The position numbers and the translations under genes were made by a program. 31,991 nt of DNA, from the IMG/VR virus record IMGVR_UViG_2563366883_000019, positions 1 to 31,991 of that record. One strand, 5' to 3'. The notes beneath the pieces are model-generated. The model did not search any database, was not told the DNA's origin, and saw nothing but the letters and a program-made list of their open reading frames with translations. This document shows positions 16,898 to 26,328 of the stretch, piece after piece; the first letter of the stretch is position 1, and the number at the start of each line of letters is the position of its first letter. Origin of the DNA: a virus. Taxonomy: Duplodnaviria > Heunggongvirae > Uroviricota > Caudoviricetes.

Positions 16898-16903
16898 ATC
16901 CAA

Positions 16904-16929
16904 CAAGAAAGCCCCTCCGGAGAGGGGCT
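16904..16929 (-). terminator. Minus-strand hairpin terminator ending repeat copy A
   Basis: GCCCCTC-TCCG-GAGGGGC on the minus strand followed by TTTCTTGTT. Confidence 0.5.
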
Positions 16930-17136
16930 GGAGAGTAGCGCTATGTACCGTTCATGCATGGTGCAGGGTGCCTCCCGGTGAGTTCAGTATCAGCACCTGA
17001 ACCCGCACCAGAAAGGATAAGGGGTGTGACCAAACACCTGTCGCTGATATGCCCCTCCGCACAGGGGGATTCACCATGCCATATTTTTTTAACAAACTTC
17101 CCGCTGGCCAGACAATAATCGCCAGCCTGAATTGTG
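16904..17136 (-). repeat. Copy A of a diverged element of about 230 bp (candidate structured RNA) in the late leader
   Basis: Shares conserved 5' and 3' blocks with copy B; the central block differs; internal helices are retained by compensatory changes. Confidence 0.6.
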
Positions 17137-17387
17137 AGTAACGTGGCATTTTACGGGAAAACTGTTTTCTGCAGTAAAAAGGCCCGCCGGAGCGAGCCTG
17201 GAAGGATAGCGGTCATGTGATGCCGGTTTCCCGGTAACTCAGCATCGGTATCTGAGTCAACGTTTTCTCTACTGGGTCATTTCCGATACGTTCCGCCTTC
17301 CGGCAGACTTTCATCACGTCAGAAAATATAGCACCCTGAGTAACAGGACAGTACTCAGAATTCAGGAAACTGTGACACATCCTGCAC

Positions 17388-17412
17388 AGAAAAGCCCCTC
17401 CGGAGAGGGGCT
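17388..17412 (-). terminator. Minus-strand hairpin terminator ending repeat copy B
   Basis: Identical GCCCCTC/GAGGGGC hairpin followed by TTTTCTG on the minus strand. Confidence 0.5.
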
Positions 17413-17606
17413 GAAGTATAGCCTAATTTCTGTCTGTCGCATGGTGCCAGGTGCCTCCCGGTAAATTCAGCCTGGCTACTGAATTTGCATGTTCGCTGGA
17501 TCATACACTTTGCCAGATGCCCCGCCGCTGAGGGGGATTCACCACGCGATGCAATTTTTAACAAATTCTCCGGCAGCCAGACAATCATCAAGCTGTGGAA
17601 TTGTGA
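17388..17606 (-). repeat. Copy B of the same element
   Basis: Same conserved blocks as copy A; the overlapping ORFs in the two copies are not conserved at protein level. Confidence 0.6.
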
Positions 17607-18732: not shown

Positions 18733-18974
18733 CACAGCCCCCATCCTTTACAATGACACCACACTTCAAACATTCGTTTCACAACTTCACGGCAGTAGAA
18801 ACCGTCAGCATCACGTGTCAGGTCATAGCGATCTCCGTGCTTCAGTCTCATATAGCATTCGAATAATCTGTTCATATACTCTTCGCCATGAACTCCGCTA
18901 TTACGCTGCTCATGCGCTTTTCCAGACGACCTGAATAAAGCCATGCGTTCAGGCACCTGCTGAATATCACGCAT
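18732..18974 (-). CDS. Hypothetical protein at the Q locus (80 aa from internal ATG), Cys/His-containing
   Basis: Begins MRDIQQVPER and starts 8 nt before the ninH stop; the ORF track frame extends to 19079, overlapping ninH. Translationally coupled to the 204-aa ORF. Confidence 0.4.
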   Translation of the reverse strand: MRDIQQVPERMALFRSSGKAHEQRNSGVHGEEYMNRLFECYMRLKHGDRYDLTRDADGFYCREVVKRMFEVWCHCKGWGL

Positions 18975-19167
18975 CAGTAGCTTTCCCCTTATCCCATCCA
19001 CGATGAACCATAAGGACACCGTTGACGACGGCGTGCCGTTTGCCTTCTTTATCACCGACATATTTTCTGACCGTAGCACGATTACAGTTCAGTTTTCGTG
19101 AAACTTCAGTCATATTGCCTCGTGCCTGGATAAGCAATTCCGGTATTGTTTGAATTGTGGCGTTCAT
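18967..19167 (-). CDS. ninH: NinH (66 aa)
   Basis: Matches lambda NinH motifs (TIPELLIQARGNMTEVSRKLNCNRATVRKYV, HAVVNGVLMVHRGW). Confidence 0.85.
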   Translation of the reverse strand: MNATIQTIPELLIQARGNMTEVSRKLNCNRATVRKYVGDKEGKRHAVVNGVLMVHRGWDKGKATDA

Positions 19168-19526
19168 ATGTTCTCCAGTTCGGTGATTTTTATCCCCACT
19201 CTACCGCCAAGCACTTTCACGCCGCGAATTACGCGAATGTCATCGAATTGCACGTCGTCTTCCGCAAATCCGGCGTGGATAAGAGAGTCGAGTAAACCTT
19301 TCAGGATGTTATCGAGGTCGCGACGGCGGGAATCTGGTGGTTCAGCAATAATTGTGATGCGAAGTCGTGATTTAGTGAAAATGTCTAATCTGAGTTGCCG
19401 GATGATTTGCTGTACGTCTTTTCGGTATTTCTGGCCTTTATCGCTGATGTAGTACTGGCTTCCCCGTCTTCGCCAGTAGGTATTCACCGTCGGCGGCCAG
19501 GGAAGCACAAACTCATATTCATTCAT
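19164..19526 (-). CDS. rusA: Holliday junction resolvase RusA (120 aa)
   Basis: RusA signature LPWPP..N.YWR...ISDKGQKYR and catalytic region DSRRRDLDNILKGLLDSL. Confidence 0.9.
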   Translation of the reverse strand: MNEYEFVLPWPPTVNTYWRRRGSQYYISDKGQKYRKDVQQIIRQLRLDIFTKSRLRITIIAEPPDSRRRDLDNILKGLLDSLIHAGFAEDDVQFDDIRVIRGVKVLGGRVGIKITELENI

Positions 19527-19816
19527 GACTTAATCTTCCCCTCCTTCAGCAATATCGCCAGCGTCCTGATCACGCCTTCCAGGTGGTAAAGTCTGGCGTC
19601 GTTGTTGTCGAGAATGCGAGTACGGCGATCGATTTCATTATGGCAGTCACTACAGGCCCATGCAGCCAACAGATCATCTGGCTTTGTTCCCGTTCCGCAA
19701 ATTCCAGCCATTCGGTAATGCGCCAGAACTGTAGTTTCAGGGTTGCCATTGCATACGCCATAAATCCGTACCTGGCATTCTCTGCCGCGCGCTTCTTTGC
19801 GTAGGTTTGTCATCAT
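19523..19816 (-). CDS. ybcO: YbcO-like DUF1364 putative nuclease (about 97 aa)
   Basis: RKEARGRECQVRIYGVCNGNPETTVLAHY...CSDCHNEID matches DLP12 YbcO; preferred ATG at 19816 has GAGGA about 6 nt upstream (the ORF track frame starts at 19852). Confidence 0.8.
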   Translation of the reverse strand: MMTNLRKEARGRECQVRIYGVCNGNPETTVLAHYRMAGICGTGTKPDDLLAAWACSDCHNEIDRRTRILDNNDARLYHLEGVIRTLAILLKEGKIKS

Positions 19817-19836
19817 CTTATTCCTCATGCAGTAGG

Positions 19837-20028
19837 CTATCCGGAGTGACAATTAAATCTTGCTCGACGCCTTAGCCACCGGATATCCCACAGGTGAGCC
19901 GTATAGTTGAAGGTTTTAACATCAGATTCTTTGGGGACTGGCCTGGGTTTATTTCGGGAGCGTTTGGTTGGAAGGTAATTGCAGTTTTCACAGACGATAT
20001 CGGTGATGCTTCGTCGCTGTCGTCTCAT
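19837..20028 (-). CDS. ninE: NinE-like protein (63 aa)
   Basis: [27 protein letters not shown]...[15 protein letters not shown] resembles lambdoid NinE; position between ninB and ybcO matches the DLP12 nin order. Confidence 0.65.
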
Positions 20029-20435
20029 TCGTACCTCCTGTCGGTAAATCTGACACCCTGATCCACGGCCCAGGATGTTGTGTACTCAATCAGGCTTGCC
20101 ATACGCTTCACGCTCATTTGCGCACTGCTTTCGCGGATATTGACGTATTCACCTTCAAGACCTGGCAAAACATCAGCTTCCTGTTTTGTCGCCACGGCAT
20201 GACCGCTGATTAACAAAACTTTCCACTGTTCTGGTTTTAGCCACCTGCCGCACCACTTAACCTGGCGGGATATATCAGCGACCATCGCGTGAAATTTTGC
20301 ATTTTGAGCGAGATTACGCTTGTAATCGGTGATACGGATCGTAACGGGTTTGTCTTTATCGAGAGTTGTTGCAAGGATTGCGTTAATGGCGAATTGTTGC
20401 TGCTGCTTACTTCGGAGGAAGATAGTCTGGTTCAT
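20025..20435 (-). CDS. ninB: NinB recombination protein (136 aa)
   Basis: NinB-like motifs (QQQFAINAI...[25 protein letters not shown]); first gene of the nin block. Confidence 0.85.
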
Positions 20436-20462
20436 TATTCCCTCTCACTGGATTTTCCCAAC

Positions 20463-20482
20463 AAAAAAGGAGCCGAAGCTCC
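20463..20482 (-). terminator. Candidate terminator after the ORF6N gene
   Basis: GGAGC-TTCG-GCTCC hairpin followed by TTTTTTGTT on the minus strand (A-run on the other side, so possibly bidirectional). Confidence 0.45.
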
Positions 20483-20489
20483 TTTAGTT

Positions 20490-21158
20490 TCAGAATTCAA
20501 ATTGTCTTGCCCGCAGACTTTTCAGCATTGGCATGGCCCGCTGGATAACGGAACTTGACATGTCGAGACGTGTTACCTCCCTTAGTAGCGCGTCTCTGTT
20601 CTTCGTCACCATGTAGATGGTCTCAAACGCAATGTCATACAGCTTGTTCGTGTATGAGGAGTTCAGCTCTTTCATAATGGGATACAGGTGTTTGCTGAGG
20701 TCCTGGGCTTTTTCCATCCAGAGCTGCATGTAGCAAAGGAGGATGATTTCTTCGGCTGTGAATTGTGGCTGAATCTGCGGCTGCTGTTCGGTTGGTGCTG
20801 TTTTTCCCTGGCTGAAATAGCAGTCTTCCAGTTTTTCGAACACTTCCCACGCCCGATCGGTTTCGAGCATTTTTGCATGACGGGCTGCGCCGCGTTCTGT
20901 CCAGAGGATGAGGGAGCGAACGTTACGGGCAATTTTCACAGAAGGTCTTAAAGACATGCTGTGCTTAAATTCGCGCAACTTCTCATTCTCAAGTAAAAAG
21001 TAGTGCTTACCGATAACAAATCGTCCAGAATTCCGATTGAAATTTTTTCGGATGTAATCTGGTTCTGTGCCATATAAGCTGGCAAGAAGCTCTGTAGTCA
21101 CCACAGGTATATTACTAAATGAAATTATGGAGAGGGACTCCACGGAGATGGTTTTCAT
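20490..21158 (-). CDS. ORF6N / KilA-N-like DNA-binding protein (putative antirepressor-type regulator, 222 aa)
   Basis: N-terminal region (TTELLASLYGTEPDYIRKNFNRNSGRFVIGKHYFL...RSLILWTERGAARHAKMLETDRAWEVFEKLEDCYF) resembles ORF6N/Ant N-terminal domains; followed by a hairpin with a T-run. Confidence 0.65.
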   Translation of the reverse strand: MKTISVESLSIISFSNIPVVTTELLASLYGTEPDYIRKNFNRNSGRFVIGKHYFLLENEKLREFKHSMSLRPSVKIARNVRSLILWTERGAARHAKMLETDRAWEVFEKLEDCYFSQGKTAPTEQQPQIQPQFTAEEIILLCYMQLWMEKAQDLSKHLYPIMKELNSSYTNKLYDIAFETIYMVTKNRDALLREVTRLDMSSSVIQRAMPMLKSLRARQFEF

Positions 21159-21390
21159 GCTTTGTGTCCTACTTGATATTTTGATTTACCCCTTTTGAGA
21201 GGGTGACCGGGCGCTCAAAACCGCAAGTAGTCGGCGGGCATATTCCCATTGCTGGTATTGTATTAGCCGCACGCCCGGTCATAAACCAAGAAGACTGGAC
21301 ACAAAAAAACCGCATGTCTGTCGGGCGCGGTAACCGCTACTTGCTAAGGTGTTTTGAGCACCTGACGCAGAGTATCCGACAGAATGTGTG

Positions 21391-21426
21391 GTGTGTCAAC
21401 ATTTCCTTGTGTAGATGTTGACACCC
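21391..21426. promoter_or_regulatory. Perfect 10-bp inverted repeat (GTGTCAACAT-N12-ATGTTGACAC) carrying TTGACA hexamers in the divergent intergenic region
   Basis: Read directly from the sequence; lies 77 bp upstream of the DUF805 gene start and 230 bp upstream of the ORF6N gene start. Confidence 0.45.
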
Positions 21427-21502
21427 TATTAGGTAAAACATTAACGTTGTTTTAAATTGTTAATAATTATCAATTTAATATTAATGTTTGGAGTATAAAA
21501 GC

Positions 21503-21877
21503 ATGAGAAAATCCCCTTTGGCATGGTATACGGATGTTCTTTTTAATAACTACTTCAATTATTCAGGGCGAGCCAGTCGAAGAGAGTTCTGGTGGTATTA
21601 TCTGTTTAATTTAATATTCTTGGGAGTTCTTTTTTTTATCGGATATACATTAGATAATACTGGCATTAGTTATGGGTTTTATATACCTTGCGTTTACGTA
21701 TTAGCTACGATTATTCCATCCATTACATTGAAAGTCCGCAGACTCCATGATATTGGGTTAAGTGCTTGGTACTTGTTTATCTGGTGCATTCCGTATATTG
21801 GTGGCTTTATATTGTTCGTTATGTACTGTATCCCGTCAGAAAAAGGGGATAATAAATACGGTGCATATAGTATTTAA
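21503..21877 (+). CDS. DUF805-family inner-membrane protein (YhaH/YhaI-like, about 124 aa)
   Basis: RREFWWYY and RRLHDIGLSAW motifs with multiple TM segments; preferred ATG at 21503 has GGAG 9 nt upstream (the ORF track frame starts at 21488); low-GC region. Confidence 0.75.
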   Translation: MRKSPLAWYTDVLFNNYFNYSGRASRREFWWYYLFNLIFLGVLFFIGYTLDNTGISYGFYIPCVYVLATIIPSITLKVRRLHDIGLSAWYLFIWCIPYIGGFILFVMYCIPSEKGDNKYGAYSI

Positions 21878-21896
21878 TCCCCGCCAGATAGTCGCA

Positions 21897-22583
21897 TCAA
21901 AAAGTACTGGTTATCTTATCTATTAGATCAAATGTCTTCTCATCAATGTACCAGTACTTTTTATCATCATTTGGGTATTCAACGAAAACCGTCCATAAAA
22001 CCTCTTCCTTTTTAATGAAAGATAAAAGAAAAGTCTCTATATCCTTTGAATTGTCTTTGGGAATAACTGTAATAAATGAAGTCCATTTTTCCAACTTTTT
22101 ACTTTTTATCTGTTTGGCCTCCTTAGGTAGAAAAATTTTAGCATTTGATTCACGTTCCAGTCGGTCTAATAATTGTTTGGCATATATATCAACAGGAACA
22201 CTTATGTCACTTGCTTTATGACGTAATTCAATAGTTGGTGTATACTCGTTCGAAAAATAGAAAACACCATCACTGGGTGATGTTATCAGAGTCTTTTCTA
22301 AATATGTGTATTTGTATGTTATTGGATTAAACCAATAACAGTACCATTCTGGCTTTAATTGCCCGCTATAAGATGTGTTATTATTGTGAACCTTACACAC
22401 AGGATAAATGTTTTCTATATCAGTCCACTTACTTTTATCCTCTTTTTTTTGTGTGTCTATGACGTTTGAGGAGTGTTTTTGGTTGAACACTTGAATATTT
22501 AAAAAAACTAAAAGTATGTTTCCGATAATAGATGCAATAAGCATTTTCTTCAGTTTTGAGTTATCCATATGCATCCCCTTCAT
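21897..22583 (-). CDS. Low-GC hypothetical protein with N-terminal signal anchor (about 228 aa)
   Basis: Preferred ATG at 22583 overlaps the upstream gene's stop (ATGA); the ORF track frame starts at 22592 on TTG. N-terminal TM LIASIIGNILLVFL; Lys/Asn/Tyr-rich composition; no recognised domain. Confidence 0.6.
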   Translation of the reverse strand: MKGMHMDNSKLKKMLIASIIGNILLVFLNIQVFNQKHSSNVIDTQKKEDKSKWTDIENIYPVCKVHNNNTSYSGQLKPEWYCYWFNPITYKYTYLEKTLITSPSDGVFYFSNEYTPTIELRHKASDISVPVDIYAKQLLDRLERESNAKIFLPKEAKQIKSKKLEKWTSFITVIPKDNSKDIETFLLSFIKKEEVLWTVFVEYPNDDKKYWYIDEKTFDLIDKITSTF

Positions 22584-23056
22584 TGTGGACAATTACTCTT
22601 TGTCATAATTATAACTAAGTCATTATATTTCGTGTTTATTATGTTATAATGATATTTGAATATATAATTATACTCCTGCATCATTTTACACTCGCCAGAA
22701 TTTAATTTTTTTTGTATTTCTAGGCTCATTAAGTTTTTAATCTCTTCACCATCAAAAAATGGCGACATATCTTCATTAATCCCATAAATATTATAGTAAT
22801 GATTAAGTGTATTTCCTTCTACGGTTGCAGCAATCCATGTAGTATAATCATCTACTTTAATAGGGAATTTTTTCTTGGATAGTTCATTTTTTAAGTATGA
22901 GGCAATTTTATCTGCATCTTCTTTGTTCGATAAAATATCATCAATTTTATTATCACCGAACTCAGTTGCAATTATCTTTACAAAGATCAGCAGAATAATA
23001 AACATTAATGCTGTTCCTGTTTTTTTTATTGCTCCTAATATTTTGTTTCCTGTCAT
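22580..23056 (-). CDS. Low-GC hypothetical protein with N-terminal signal anchor (158 aa)
   Basis: N-terminal TM ALMFIILLIFVKIIA; translationally coupled to the downstream 228-aa ORF; a TTGACA -35-like hexamer lies upstream; no recognised domain. Confidence 0.6.
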   Translation of the reverse strand: MTGNKILGAIKKTGTALMFIILLIFVKIIATEFGDNKIDDILSNKEDADKIASYLKNELSKKKFPIKVDDYTTWIAATVEGNTLNHYYNIYGINEDMSPFFDGEEIKNLMSLEIQKKLNSGECKMMQEYNYIFKYHYNIINTKYNDLVIIMTKSNCPQ

Positions 23057-23233
23057 CTTGCAAATCTAACATAAAATTTAATGAGTCTTATTAATAAATT
23101 TAATTTCTTATGAGTTGTCAACCTTCCATCAAGCAAACCGTGATCTAACAGCATGACTGTCTGCTTGATATGTGTTGTCGTCAACACAGTACAGTCCTTG
23201 AATACATATAACAAATTTGTTATGTTGATACCT

Positions 23234-23563
23234 ATGAACTACACTATCGAATACTACAGTGAAGAGGTCCGGCTGGAAGTCGATCAGCTTCCATTGAGTA
23301 TGCGTGTCCGATACAAACATCTCATTGAACGTATGAAGGTATACGGCAGCAATCTCGGAGAACCTCATACCAGCGCCTTTGGTGATGGGCTTTTCGAACT
23401 CAGAATTAAAGGCAACGATGGGATTGCACGTGTTTTTTACTGCACTCTGACAGGGAAACGCATCATTATGCTGCATAGCTTCATTAAGAAAACGCAGAAA
23501 ACACCGCCAGCCGAACGCAAAAAAGCTGAAGCCAGAATGAAGGAGGTTAAGCATGACTGGTAA
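23234..23563 (+). CDS. Type II toxin, RelE/ParE superfamily, phage Gp49-like (HigB-type arrangement, 109 aa)
   Basis: Gp49-like motifs (GDGLFELRIKGNDGIARVFY...IIMLHSFIKKTQKTPPAE); 11-nt overlap with the downstream HTH gene; the ORF track frame starts further upstream at 23153. Confidence 0.8.
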   Translation: MNYTIEYYSEEVRLEVDQLPLSMRVRYKHLIERMKVYGSNLGEPHTSAFGDGLFELRIKGNDGIARVFYCTLTGKRIIMLHSFIKKTQKTPPAERKKAEARMKEVKHDW

Positions 23564-23861
23564 ACGCATTACACCTACCATGACACACGACGAAATGGCA
23601 GCCAAATGGATGGAGGATCCGGCTTTCAAAGCAGAATACGACGCCATCGCCGACGAGTTCGCACTGCTTGATGAAATGCTGGCAGCACGAAAAGAAGCTG
23701 GCTTAACCCAGGCTGAAGTTGCCGAACGTATGGGAACAAAAGCGACTGCGATCACCAGAATGGAAAGCAATCTTGCATCAGGTACAAGCGGCCCATCATT
23801 TGCCACACTGAAAAAATTCGCCCGTGCTACAGGGAAAAAACTCCAGATCCGCTTCGTTTAA
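23553..23861 (+). CDS. XRE-family HTH antitoxin (HigA-like, 102 aa)
   Basis: AGGAGG lies 6 nt upstream of the ATG; HTH motif LTQAEVAERMGTKATAITRME; toxin-first gene order. Confidence 0.8.
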   Translation: MTGKRITPTMTHDEMAAKWMEDPAFKAEYDAIADEFALLDEMLAARKEAGLTQAEVAERMGTKATAITRMESNLASGTSGPSFATLKKFARATGKKLQIRFV

Positions 23862-23915
23862 CTCCCCACTACCGCGCCGTCATTCTGGCGGCGCTTTACC
23901 CCAGAGAAATATCAA

Positions 23916-24161
23916 TCACCGGATTACCACATCCCACTCCGGCTCCTGCCATCTCAAATCCGGTGAATCATTTCTCTCAGGAATAACCATTACGTCCTTT
24001 TCCCTTCGCTCCCTTTCTATCGCCATCACAGCCAATGCTGCAACCATGATGTATTTTTGTTCGTCGGTTCCTGTTTCATAACGACGCATGAGGGTAAACT
24101 CGGGGCGATCAGTAACCTCAATGATTTCGTTAATTTCTTTAATTTCGCGAGGAATATCCAT
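23916..24161 (-). CDS. Hypothetical small acidic protein (81 aa); coding status uncertain
   Basis: ATG at 24161 with AGGAG 9 nt upstream; its start codon overlaps the start codon of the divergent plus-strand gene at the CATG palindrome 24159-24162. The ORF track frame extends to 24185. Confidence 0.35.
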   Translation of the reverse strand: MDIPREIKEINEIIEVTDRPEFTLMRRYETGTDEQKYIMVAALAVMAIERERREKDVMVIPERNDSPDLRWQEPEWDVVIR

Positions 24162-24834
24162 GGGTTTAGTCTCCTTTGATATCACATGCCCGCACTGTTT
24201 AAAAGAGCGAGCTGTTATTGAGGCATTTGCCGAAAAACAAATTGAAAAAACACCTTTTTTTAACGTCGCTTTTGTATGCAGAAGTTGTCATCGAGGAGGT
24301 GTTGCTATTGTTGAAATCCCATCAGACCACTATCACGGTCCCATGGCGGAAAGCCAGAAAAAAGACCTCGATATTCTGATTTCAGGAAATAGCCAGTACC
24401 GTTTCCGCAAGATCTATCCTGTGGTCAAAAAAATTACCGCACCAGAATATACACCCCCGGTTGCAGACCGTACTTTTGTTGAGGCAAAAGAGGATTTACA
24501 GAGGAGGCGGTACGACACAGTGGTTATTCTTTGTCGCAGAGTCCTCGATATCTCCACGAAAAAACTGCTCGGCGATGAAGCAGGAAAAGAATCGCTGTCG
24601 CAACGTATTCAGATGATTTACAAAAAAGGCCTGATCACTGAACAGATGAAGGAATGGGCTCATATTGTACGAATTGATGCCAATAAAGCAGTTCATACAG
24701 ATGAAGTTTTCACACCAATTGAGGCAAGCCAGATCCTGAGTTTTACCGAAATGTTTTTAGTCTACGCCTTCACTCTGCCTGCAATGGTGGAAGCCAGACG
24801 TGAACAAAAAAGATCAGATTCAGCCTCTATATGA
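24160..24834 (+). CDS. Zinc-ribbon protein with helical C-terminal domain (possibly DUF4145/HEPN-like, about 224 aa)
   Basis: ATG at 24160 with GAGG 7 nt upstream; CPHC...CRSC zinc-ribbon pair at the N-terminus; C-terminal region contains an R-x7-H segment (RIDANKAVH). Domain assignment is from memory and unverified. The ORF track frame starts at 24088. Confidence 0.6.
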   Translation: MGLVSFDITCPHCLKERAVIEAFAEKQIEKTPFFNVAFVCRSCHRGGVAIVEIPSDHYHGPMAESQKKDLDILISGNSQYRFRKIYPVVKKITAPEYTPPVADRTFVEAKEDLQRRRYDTVVILCRRVLDISTKKLLGDEAGKESLSQRIQMIYKKGLITEQMKEWAHIVRIDANKAVHTDEVFTPIEASQILSFTEMFLVYAFTLPAMVEARREQKRSDSASI

Positions 24835-24866
24835 ATCACTTTTCTGAACACGTAAGCCCCCGTCAT

Positions 24867-25298
24867 TCACGACGGGGAGAACATCAATCCCTCTGCACTC
24901 CCTCGCCAGAATGCCAGCACACGCTGCATCGTTTCGCTGTTACGGCACTCGCGACAAATTGTGTTGTAGCGTCTGTCGTAGCGCCGTATTTCCCCATCTG
25001 GTAATGCCCGGATAAGGTCTGGATCAACGACAACCGGTTTCTTCGACTTTGCCCTTGAGAGTTTTTTGCGGGCATTTTGCCAGTCCTTACGAGCCTGTTC
25101 AGACGGGAATACTCCGTAACCGGAATTGTAAACATCACCACTGGCGGCCAGCTCCATGCATAAACGACCGACAGACGCATGACTGACACCAATTTCATCC
25201 GATAACTGCCGAATCGTGCCTCGTCCGTTAAGGCGTACGAATTCCACGATCAGCCCCTTAATTTTTTCCCGCTCTTCTGGTGTAAATGCTCTTGTCAT
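24867..25298 (-). CDS. Winged-helix/HTH DNA-binding protein of unknown role (143 aa)
   Basis: ATG at 25298 with GGAGGT 5 nt upstream; HTH-like segment TIRQLSDEIGVSHASVGRLCMEL; IS1 lies 36 bp upstream of the start. Confidence 0.6.
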   Translation of the reverse strand: MTRAFTPEEREKIKGLIVEFVRLNGRGTIRQLSDEIGVSHASVGRLCMELAASGDVYNSGYGVFPSEQARKDWQNARKKLSRAKSKKPVVVDPDLIRALPDGEIRRYDRRYNTICRECRNSETMQRVLAFWRGSAEGLMFSPS

Positions 25299-25389
25299 AA
25301 GCACCTCCGGAGATCACTTTGTTGTCGGTGAATGGGTGATGCTGCCAACTTACTGATTTAGTGTATGATGGTGTTTTTGAGGTGCTCCA

Positions 25390-25665
25390 GTGGCTTCTGT
25401 TTCTATCAGCTGTCCCTCCTGTTCAGCTACTGACGGGGTGGTGCGTAACGGCAAAAGCACCGCCGGACATCAGCGCTATCTCTGCTCTCACTGCCGTAAA
25501 ACATGGCAACTGCAGTTCACTTACACCGCTTCTCAACCCGGTACGCACCAGAAAATCATTGATATGGCCATGAATGGCGTTGGATGCCGGGCAACTGCCC
25601 GCATTATGGGCGTTGGCCTCAACACGATTTTACGTCACTTAAAAAACTCAGGCCGCAGTCGGTAA
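25390..25665 (+). CDS. insA: IS1 InsA (91 aa, GTG start)
   Basis: Identical in recognisable motifs to IS1 InsA ([43 protein letters not shown]...). Confidence 0.95.
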
Positions 25666-26087
25666 CCTCGCGCATACAGCCGGGCAGTGACGTCATCGTC
25701 TGCGCGGAAATGGACGAACAGTGGGGCTATGTCGGGGCTAAATCGCGCCAGCGCTGGCTGTTTTACGCGTATGACAGTCTCCGGAAGACGGTTGTTGCGC
25801 ACGTATTCGGTGAACGCACTATGGCGACGCTGGGGCGTCTTATGAGCCTGCTGTCACCCTTTGACGTGGTGATATGGATGACGGATGGCTGGCCGCTGTA
25901 TGAATCCCGCCTGAAGGGAAAGCTGCACGTAATCAGCAAGCGATATACGCAGCGAATTGAGCGGCATAACCTGAATCTGAGGCAGCACCTGGCACGGCTG
26001 GGACGGAAGTCGCTGTCGTTCTCAAAATCGGTGGAGCTGCATGACAAAGTCATCGGGCATTATCTGAACATAAAACACTATCAATAA
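25584..26087 (+). CDS. insB: IS1 InsB frame (expressed as InsAB' transposase by -1 frameshift)
   Basis: InsB motifs ([21 protein letters not shown]...[13 protein letters not shown]); TTAAAAAACTC slippery site at about 25640. Confidence 0.95.
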
Positions 26088-26328
26088 GTTGGAGTCATTA
26101 CCAGGACAGTCGTTTTGTTTTATGTGGGTTAAATGGCAAAACACCAAGCCCATATATTCATGCTGCACGTGAAGTCGTCAGAAGCAACATTGGAGTACAA
26201 CAAATCCATACACTGGCGCAGGCTCTTGAGTTTGCAAGAGAAAATTCCGAGTGCGACTGCCCTGAATGCCAGCACGAAAAGGGAAAAACAACTCACAAAA
26301 CAGCAAACCAGGCAACCTTCCACTGAAA

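Follow-up and report, generated by a model that had tools for sequence, protein, structure and literature searches.

A perfect inverted repeat between divergent genes of a Shiga-toxin-type prophage: a possible shared promoter core and operator beside an sRNA-Xcc1 antirepressor module

In the immI region of phage P22, the antirepressor promoter Pant and the divergent promoter Pmnt are overlapped by dyad operators of 17–21 bp (Omnt, Oarc) that are bound by the locally encoded ribbon-helix-helix proteins Mnt and Arc, and an antisense, overlapping RNA, sar, adds a further level of control. In the immI regions of phages P1 and P7 (c4-icd-ant, a1b1/a2b2), as in the CA RNA system of phage N15, a structured RNA lies upstream of the antirepressor gene on the same transcript, with a loop complementary to one upstream target and to another over the ribosome-binding site, and with many specificities. 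Here we describe a perfect inverted repeat, hereafter the palindrome, in a 31,991-nucleotide viral sequence (Caudoviricetes; IMG/VR record IMGVR_UViG_2563366883_000019), the whole of which we call the window. The window is a lambdoid, Shiga-toxin-type prophage, 96% identical over positions 18941–25320 to Shigella phage 75/02 Stx, and the palindrome separates a leftward unit containing the small RNA (sRNA) sRNA-Xcc1 and an antirepressor gene from a rightward DUF805 membrane-protein gene.

The locus resembles P22 immI in that a dyad site overlaps the antirepressor promoter, that transcription is divergent and that control by a small RNA is added. It differs in that its half-sites lie 22 bp apart, that no Mnt- or Arc-like gene is present at the locus, and that its RNA appears c4-like, co-directional and upstream rather than antisense and overlapping. 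It shares with P1/P7 and N15 the order of RNA and antirepressor, the paired loop targets and a multiplicity of specificities, but the RNA matches Rfam family RF02221 and not RF01695, an icd-like open reading frame is absent from the module, and the operator of the P1 promoter, Op51, is an asymmetric C1 site unlike the symmetric repeat found here. The tetramer operators of NikR (GTATGA-N16-TCATAC) and FitAB (8-N14-8) also place their half-sites about 22 bp apart on one helix face, as in the palindrome; they have no sequence similarity to it, and no ribbon-helix-helix or NikR/FitA-like protein is encoded near it. Taken as a whole, the element is of an ordinary kind and a known type.

The palindrome, GTGTCAACAT-N12-ATGTTGACAC, occupies positions 21393–21424 and was recovered by sequence reading, by a repeat finder (pair I6) and by a pattern search, with arms complementary at 10 of 10 positions and no symmetry beyond them. 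The initial annotation had proposed a perfect 10/10 repeat around a 12-nt spacer, which these three approaches confirm; it had placed the repeat at 21391–21426, the right site drawn 2 nt too wide on each side, and its statement that each arm contains TTGACA holds in the sense of one hexamer per strand (minus strand, 21399–21394; plus strand, 21418–21423; 18 bp between the hexamers) and not otherwise. Its placement beside a low-GC island was also correct: the G+C content (GC) falls from 0.46 in 21000–21399 to 0.33 in 21400–21799, and the palindrome sits at the edge of the low-GC DUF805 island, in the intergenic region of two divergent genes, overlapping the -35 hexamers of both strands. Its parts, to which no strand is assigned, are as follows.

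21393–21402, left arm of the palindrome, GTGTCAACAT; invariant in all related loci found
21403–21414, spacer of the palindrome, TTCCTTGTGTAG, 12 nt; length kept, sequence free
21415–21424, right arm of the palindrome, ATGTTGACAC; 10/10 in L266–L273 and 9/10 in L072, unlike the spacer and the outer flank

We favour, with roughly balanced confidence, the reading that two back-to-back sigma-70 promoters share the palindrome as their core and that it also serves as an operator. The left arm, as -35 element, and GATACT 17 bp away would direct a leftward transcript starting near 21363, which would carry a leader with a first sRNA target, a terminator-like hairpin, sRNA-Xcc1, a second target at the ribosome-binding site and the antirepressor gene with its ORF6N and P22_AR_C domains, together forming an immunity module of the P1 c4 or N15 CA kind. 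The right arm would be the mirror-image -35 element of a cargo gene, DUF805 in the window and, in a sister family, the gene for a small secreted protein. The symmetry reaches four positions past the hexamers, and 22 bp, or about two helical turns, separate the centres of the half-sites. Dyad symmetry of the kind expected of an operator covers both -35 hexamers with 10/10 arms; a symmetric dimer or tetramer bound to both arms would cover both -35 elements and could repress both promoters together. The initial annotation had likewise suggested a dimeric repressor site over -35 elements: the overlap and the dyad symmetry stand, while a binder was not found and the operator role is deduced from conserved symmetry. 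The probability that four further bases are symmetric, given two -35 hexamers, is about 1/256, a figure in which the identical spacing is not yet counted.

The leftward promoter carries the first part of this reading, and its elements are as follows.

21394–21399, minus strand, -35 hexamer TTGACA of the predicted leftward promoter (promoter scan)
21371–21376, minus strand, -10 hexamer GATACT of the leftward promoter (promoter scan); predicted start about 21363/21362

TTGACA-17-GATACT matches the consensus at 10 of 12 positions and is the sole promoter call in 20900–22000, a region for which shuffled sequences average 3.4 calls; as is typical of sigma-70 promoters, its near-consensus hexamers lie within 16–18 bp of each other and its -10 hexamer has A2 and T6. 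Among 70 distinct upstream regions of the sRNA-Xcc1 family, a near-consensus promoter (score of at least 9.5) was present in 43%, vs 1% of shuffled controls, and in 49 of the 70 the -10 hexamer ends 22–29 nt before the leader/loop target. The homologous position in phage Nil2 is annotated as "promoter sequence by homology", and TTGACA occurs there too, within surrounding sequence that is non-homologous. With good confidence, the left arm can thus be assigned as the -35 element of a promoter predicted to drive the leader, sRNA-Xcc1 and the antirepressor gene, and we infer that this promoter is active at the window copy. That a strong promoter lies exactly at the palindrome is explained by the sRNA-Xcc1/antirepressor module downstream of it, whose parts are listed here.

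21337–21362, minus strand, 5' leader with hairpin GGUGCUCAAAACACC followed by CAAGUAG, upstream target site 1 of the sRNA (repeats I4, I12 and D1); covaries with the sRNA loop
21303–21331, minus strand, terminator-like hairpin ACCGC...GCGGU followed by seven U, between leader and sRNA; motif kept across sRNA-Xcc1 family members
21197–21280, minus strand, sRNA-Xcc1 RNA (RF02221); full-length Rfam match, 79.6 bits vs a gathering score of 53
21169–21184, minus strand, target site 2, UCAAAAUAUCAAGUAG, downstream of the sRNA (repeat I1); covers the two leading bases of the Shine-Dalgarno sequence AGGA (21170–21167)
20490–21158, minus strand, antirepressor gene with ORF6N and P22_AR_C domains (Pfam PF10543, 1.7e-18; PF10548, 2.2e-07; PHROG 377, "anti-repressor Ant", 5e-80)

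The start codon of the ORF6N gene is at 21158, and the predicted transcript runs through leader, terminator-like hairpin, sRNA, site 2 and ORF6N in that order. The antirepressor gene is therefore not directly downstream of the palindrome: a leader of about 200 nt, the terminator-like hairpin and sRNA-Xcc1, which the initial annotation had missed, intervene. The terminator scan missed the hairpin at 21303–21331 because its loop is 13 nt long.

The second part of the reading, the operator, depends on how the palindrome is conserved. Three contexts, namely the window type, KY176 and L022–L026, share the block 21370–21920 (promoter, palindrome and DUF805) at about 99% identity, with an invariant palindrome and different sRNA/antirepressor modules; between the window and L022, three changes fall in the 133-nt intergenic part and about 26 in the 375-nt DUF805 gene. 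Of 5,426 complete Escherichia coli genomes, 150 contain the adjacent part of the sRNA module (21330–21375), and only 8 contain the palindrome, always with DUF805. A second cargo family, made up of eight E. coli draft assemblies (L266–L273) and the viral contig L072, has the same ORF6N/sRNA module, with a gene for a small signal-peptide protein in place of DUF805. This family agrees with the DUF805 type, with 0–1 change, over the 32 nt that run from the -10 hexamer through the left arm, after which L266–L273 have the spacer TATATGATACTG, also 12 nt long and agreeing with the window at 4 of 12 positions (8 of 12 changed), then the right arm ATGTTGACAC intact (10/10), then sequence unrelated to the window; in L072 the spacer is TATTTGATACTG, again 12 nt, and the right arm is ATGTTGACAT (9/10). 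Half-sites and spacing are thus kept around a freely varying spacer, as would be expected of an operator, within two spacer families only; viral contigs, metagenome contigs and complete E. coli genomes yielded no new spacer variant, and the plasmid collection held no match to the island. Because an isolated 10-nt identity at the same distance is explained neither by one breakpoint nor by neutral drift, we regard these comparisons as evidence that arms and spacing are under selection, for which a symmetric DNA-binding protein would be the usual cause. Absence of the palindrome from homologous islands had been named as grounds for rejecting an operator; it is present in every homologous DUF805 island found and also beside a different cargo gene. 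DUF805 homologues outside E. coli (Salmonella, 48% identity) have an unrelated upstream region in which the palindrome is absent.

The same comparisons bear on another explanation, which we consider possible though less probable, namely that there are two back-to-back promoters and nothing else, with RNA polymerase as the sole binder and with symmetry and spacing produced by cassette recombination or by template-switch "quasi-palindrome correction". Consensus -35 hexamers on both strands fit this explanation, as does the failure to find a cognate regulator or a second site, and the repeat by itself lies within chance expectation. The layout can moreover arise naturally: the same palindrome stands between clear divergent promoters of the unrelated phage L222, and inverted pairs of TGTCAACAT and ATGTTGACA are common in viral contigs (more than 119 matches). 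Set against this are the 10-nt identity island between unrelated spacer and flank, the exact 12-bp spacing and the unchanged 17-nt spacer of the adjacent promoter. Also against it, the bases flanking TTGACA in other promoters of the sRNA-Xcc1 family have no preference for ATG.

The matches in viral contigs, obtained in a scan with 9-nt arms, belong mostly to unrelated families (giant-virus repeats and ATGTTGACA arrays); L072 alone is relevant and L222 is an instructive analogue. In the cI-like/cro-like region of L222, the arms TGTCAACAT-N12-ATGTTGACA are identical to those of the window, an identity that follows from searching for exactly that pattern, and each supplies the -35 element of a good promoter, TTGACA-16-TACAAT leftward and TTGACA-17-TATATT rightward; phage and genes are unrelated to the window, and the repeats TGTCCACAA and TTGTGGACA look like L222's operators. 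Contigs from giant-virus metagenome-assembled genomes (MAGs; L164, L170–L173 and others) contain TGTCAACAT-N14-ATGTTGACA repeats, and tandem arrays of ATGTTGACA(C) occur in some phage contigs (L168, L199, L252 and L259); both kinds of repeat are unrelated to the window.

Returning to the combined promoter and operator reading, several results weigh against it. For a sequence of this size, the expected number of perfect 10-nt inverted repeats with a 3–20 nt spacer is 0.58; simulating the window as a first-order Markov chain gave at least one in 37% of runs, and the window itself contains three. The exact pattern occurred 0 times in 100 shuffles, a test that is too narrow, and a scan for the exact palindrome in 596 Gb of species-representative genomes gave 14 matches in unrelated taxa, vs about 5 estimated by chance, and is uninformative. 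The palindrome alone is thus not statistically significant, and its weight comes from position and comparative conservation. The arms never vary, so evidence from covariation is absent. A search for the same palindrome elsewhere, which the initial annotation had suggested as a check, found no second copy in the window or in the approximately 24 kb of phage 75/02 Stx examined, and a half-site search in the window gave a sole 1-mismatch copy near the island (23222–23231) that is not kept in KY176. The cI-cro operators of 75/02 Stx are AGTTAA-type repeats unrelated to the palindrome. To our knowledge, none of the LexA, CRP, FNR, Tus/Ter, matS, attC or pho-box consensus sequences, compared by eye, fits the palindrome. 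No binder can be named, and no gene common to all five contexts was found; the binder, if there is one, would come from the host or from another part of the prophage. To these points are added the poor -10 element on the DUF805 side and the fate of the two adjacent candidate binders, described below.

The poor -10 element concerns the rightward side of the palindrome, where the features are as follows.

21418–21423, plus strand, -35 hexamer TTGACA of a possible rightward (cargo, DUF805) promoter (sequence reading)
21442–21447, plus strand, weak candidate -10 hexamer TAACGT at 18-nt spacing, 3/6 matches (by eye); the least certain part
21503–21877, plus strand, DUF805 membrane-protein gene, the first cargo gene on the right-arm side (Pfam PF05656, 1.5e-30; PHROG "moron" category, membrane protein)

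The available hexamers are TTAACG at 17 bp (2/6 matches) and TAACGT at 18 bp (3/6), neither of which appears among the calls of the promoter scan, and the window offers no -10 hexamer with at least 4/6 matches at 16–18 bp, as a rightward sigma-70 promoter would call for. In the second cargo family, the right arm leads into TTGACA-17-TATAGC (4/6, with no T at position 6), followed by a short 5' untranslated region and an AAGGA ribosome-binding site. With its poor -10 element, the DUF805-side promoter is the least secure component of the bidirectional-promoter reading, and the proposal of the initial annotation that the site controls DUF805 or ORF6N fares unevenly: the two divergent genes do flank it and the leftward promoter is credible, while the DUF805 side lacks a good -10. 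The interval from the right arm to the DUF805 start codon contains an AT-rich near-palindrome, TTAAATTGTTAAT A ATTATCAATTTAA (21452–21478, 12/13 complementary, repeat pair I2); related loci vary within it at 21456 (G or T) and 21470 (C), each variant altering one arm only, and it is probably not a conserved site. Just past the DUF805 stop codon, inside the 3' end of a convergent 231-aa gene, we noted by eye a 13-nt inverted repeat, AAAAAGTACTGGT / ACCAGTACTTTTT (21901–21913 and 21949–21961), which may be a bidirectional terminator.

Should the palindrome be an operator, its binder might be an adjacent gene product, either the ORF6N antirepressor, with its KilA-N-like N-terminal domain, or the XRE-family helix-turn-helix (HTH) protein on the cargo side; we judge such local binding quite unlikely. 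ORF6N is a predicted DNA-binding domain (Pfam), and the initial annotation had named the ORF6N protein as a possible binder. That candidate is unlikely, as the identical palindrome stands beside AntA-type antirepressors without an ORF6N domain in KY176 and L022–L026. The XRE variant would resemble the arrangement of P22 immI, in which the Mnt repressor is divergent from Pant. In its favour, a window-type HTH gene immediately follows the cargo gene in L072 and is probably read from the right-arm promoter, L266 has another HTH_3 gene at that place, and the arms contain AACA...TGTT in the orientation seen in the half-sites of the XRE antitoxin's own operator. Yet the XRE gene is missing from L022–L026, and the HTH protein that replaces it in L266 is unrelated to that of the window.

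The XRE protein (23553–23861) was also set aside as the leading candidate on the ground that a different, conserved site, its probable operator, was found. It is the antitoxin of a widespread Gp49/XRE (HigBA-like) pair, and a perfect 16-bp palindrome, ATAACAAATTTGTTAT (23208–23223), lies directly upstream of the Gp49-family toxin gene; its form, ATAACA-N4-TGTTAT, is kept at Gp49/XRE loci of Serratia, Photorhabdus and other E. coli (L274–L279) and is probably the antitoxin's operator. That operator has another geometry and stands beside its own toxin gene, whereas the palindrome studied here has only AACA/TGTT in common with it, at a 12-bp spacing, and does not qualify as a Gp49/XRE operator.

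Action as a nucleic-acid hairpin, whether as terminator or insulator, as RNase III site or as a stabiliser of read-through transcripts entering the sRNA module, seems to us very improbable. As RNA the palindrome folds well (-16.3 kcal/mol on one strand and -18.5 kcal/mol on the other, with z between about -4.5 and -5), and Pasteurellaceae-type members of the sRNA-Xcc1 family do embed the -35 element of the sRNA promoter in a G+C-rich terminator hairpin. Against such a role, there is no U-run on either strand, the 10-bp stem has four G-C pairs and encloses a 12-nt loop, the terminator scan was negative, and the L266-type context has no co-oriented upstream gene that could supply read-through. 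Furthermore, both arms lie upstream of both predicted starts and thus outside both local transcripts, which favours a role at the DNA level and makes one at the RNA level unlikely.

Equally remote, in our estimate, is a recombination site or an exchange junction for cargo cassettes, with the arms placed like the inverted arms around the crossover spacer of lox or res. The cargo families diverge exactly at the boundary of left arm and spacer, with both arms kept in each, and resolvase half-sites begin with TGTC, as the palindrome arms do. However, no recombinase gene accompanies the cassette in any context, no second copy or half-site marks the other breakpoint, both halves of the spacer differ, unlike a central crossover, and DUF805 cassettes break downstream of the -10 hexamer (about 21369/70) rather than in the palindrome.

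An extension of the combined promoter and operator reading is that the palindrome is a portable symmetric promoter-operator at which prophage cargo genes ("morons") are swapped, so that one regulator would tie the expression of the cargo to that of the antirepressor and sRNA. We put this forward tentatively and regard it as unlikely.

The module controlled by the leftward promoter proved informative in itself. sRNA-Xcc1 has been described in the literature as a trans-acting, virulence-linked sRNA; its association with ORF6N has been remarked on in passing for APSE phages (10.1101/2020.03.17.996009), and a homologous RNA is abundant in RNA sequencing data of the enterohaemorrhagic E. coli lysogen EDL933, with 40,293 reads and very low ribosome coverage (PMC5331693), which counts indirectly in favour of the leftward promoter. 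In the window, the second loop and 3' tail of the sRNA (CUACUUGCGGUUUUGA, 21230–21215) are complementary to both flanking target sites. Three sRNA specificities are found beside the same palindrome, CUACUUG/CAAGUAG in the window, CUUGCUG/CAGCAAG in KY176 and CUAUCGC/GCGAUAG in L022–L026, and in each of these three diverged modules the loop and both targets have changed jointly. Across 53 distinct loop variants, drawn from one conserved-sequence scan of viral contigs together with loci already fetched, a complement of the loop of at least 7 nt was present in the same locus on the upstream side for 41 variants and on the downstream side for 37, compared with 8.8% and 3.6% between loci; this k-mer complementarity test was used, and a duplex-energy test was dropped as it was confounded by stem sequences. 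The gene downstream of sRNA-Xcc1 was of antirepressor type (ORF6N, AntA, KilA-N or Ant) each time in the approximately dozen loci inspected. The segment 21197–21280 matched RF02221 only, a family assigned to no clan, and did not match Rfam C4 (RF01695, clan CL00128) even at a permissive E-value.

By these patterns of complementarity, sRNA-Xcc1 behaves as a c4-like antisense RNA that would act within its own locus, here and in dozens of viral contigs and phages, and control of the antirepressor is probably layered and largely RNA-based. In phages Nil2 (L001, 4066–4264) and P13374 (L003, 4957–5144), isrK, C4 and c4-a1b1 Rfam matches precede antA directly upstream of the sRNA-Xcc1 module, in which sRNA-Xcc1 precedes antB, so that two antirepressor modules, each under RNA control, stand in tandem. 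In the Nil2 record, antA and antB are instead treated as a single ant gene interrupted by a "putative bacterial retrotransposon". In Pasteurellaceae-type sRNA-Xcc1 loci (L034, L121, L126, L140 and others), the -35 element lies within the loop of a G+C-rich terminator hairpin whose T-run forms the promoter spacer; AAGCCCC-TTGACACCCAA-GGGGCTTTTTT-TATGAT is an example of this compact terminator-promoter unit.

In the wider prophage, the minus-strand early-right genes continue from the ORF6N/P22_AR_C antirepressor gene (21158–20490) to ninB, rusA, ninH and a Q-like gene, and two tandem full-length matches to the STnc100 sRNA (16899–17108 and 17384–17577, minus strand; 129.9 and 138.7 bits) have coordinates below those of the Q-like gene. 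On the palindrome's right side, DUF805 on the plus strand is followed by two minus-strand genes of low GC and unknown function, by the Gp49/XRE toxin-antitoxin pair and by a DUF4145 and a DUF977 gene. An IS1 element (25321–26104), which brings the DUF977 gene directly next to the recE (exonuclease VIII) region, replaces about 7 kb that in 75/02 Stx contain kil, a cI-like repressor gene, cro, cII, replication genes and a DUF1627 gene. Because the cI-like repressor and replication region is replaced, the window prophage, as read from its gene content, is defective in immunity and replication and without a repressor of its own.

If the palindrome is an operator, it would be the on/off point for an antirepressor module found in Shiga-toxin-type prophages, with consequences for induction and prophage cross-talk, and for the adjacent cargo gene. 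If it is in addition a portable unit, one protein, of host or prophage origin, would set both the output of a lysogenic-conversion gene and the anti-immunity state of the prophage, and the identical arms, replaced spacer and replaced cargo would be the footprint of exchange. The more interesting by-product, beyond the palindrome itself, is a concrete and testable mechanism for the sRNA-Xcc1 family, whose members would act as c4-like antisense RNAs on the antirepressor genes of their own loci.

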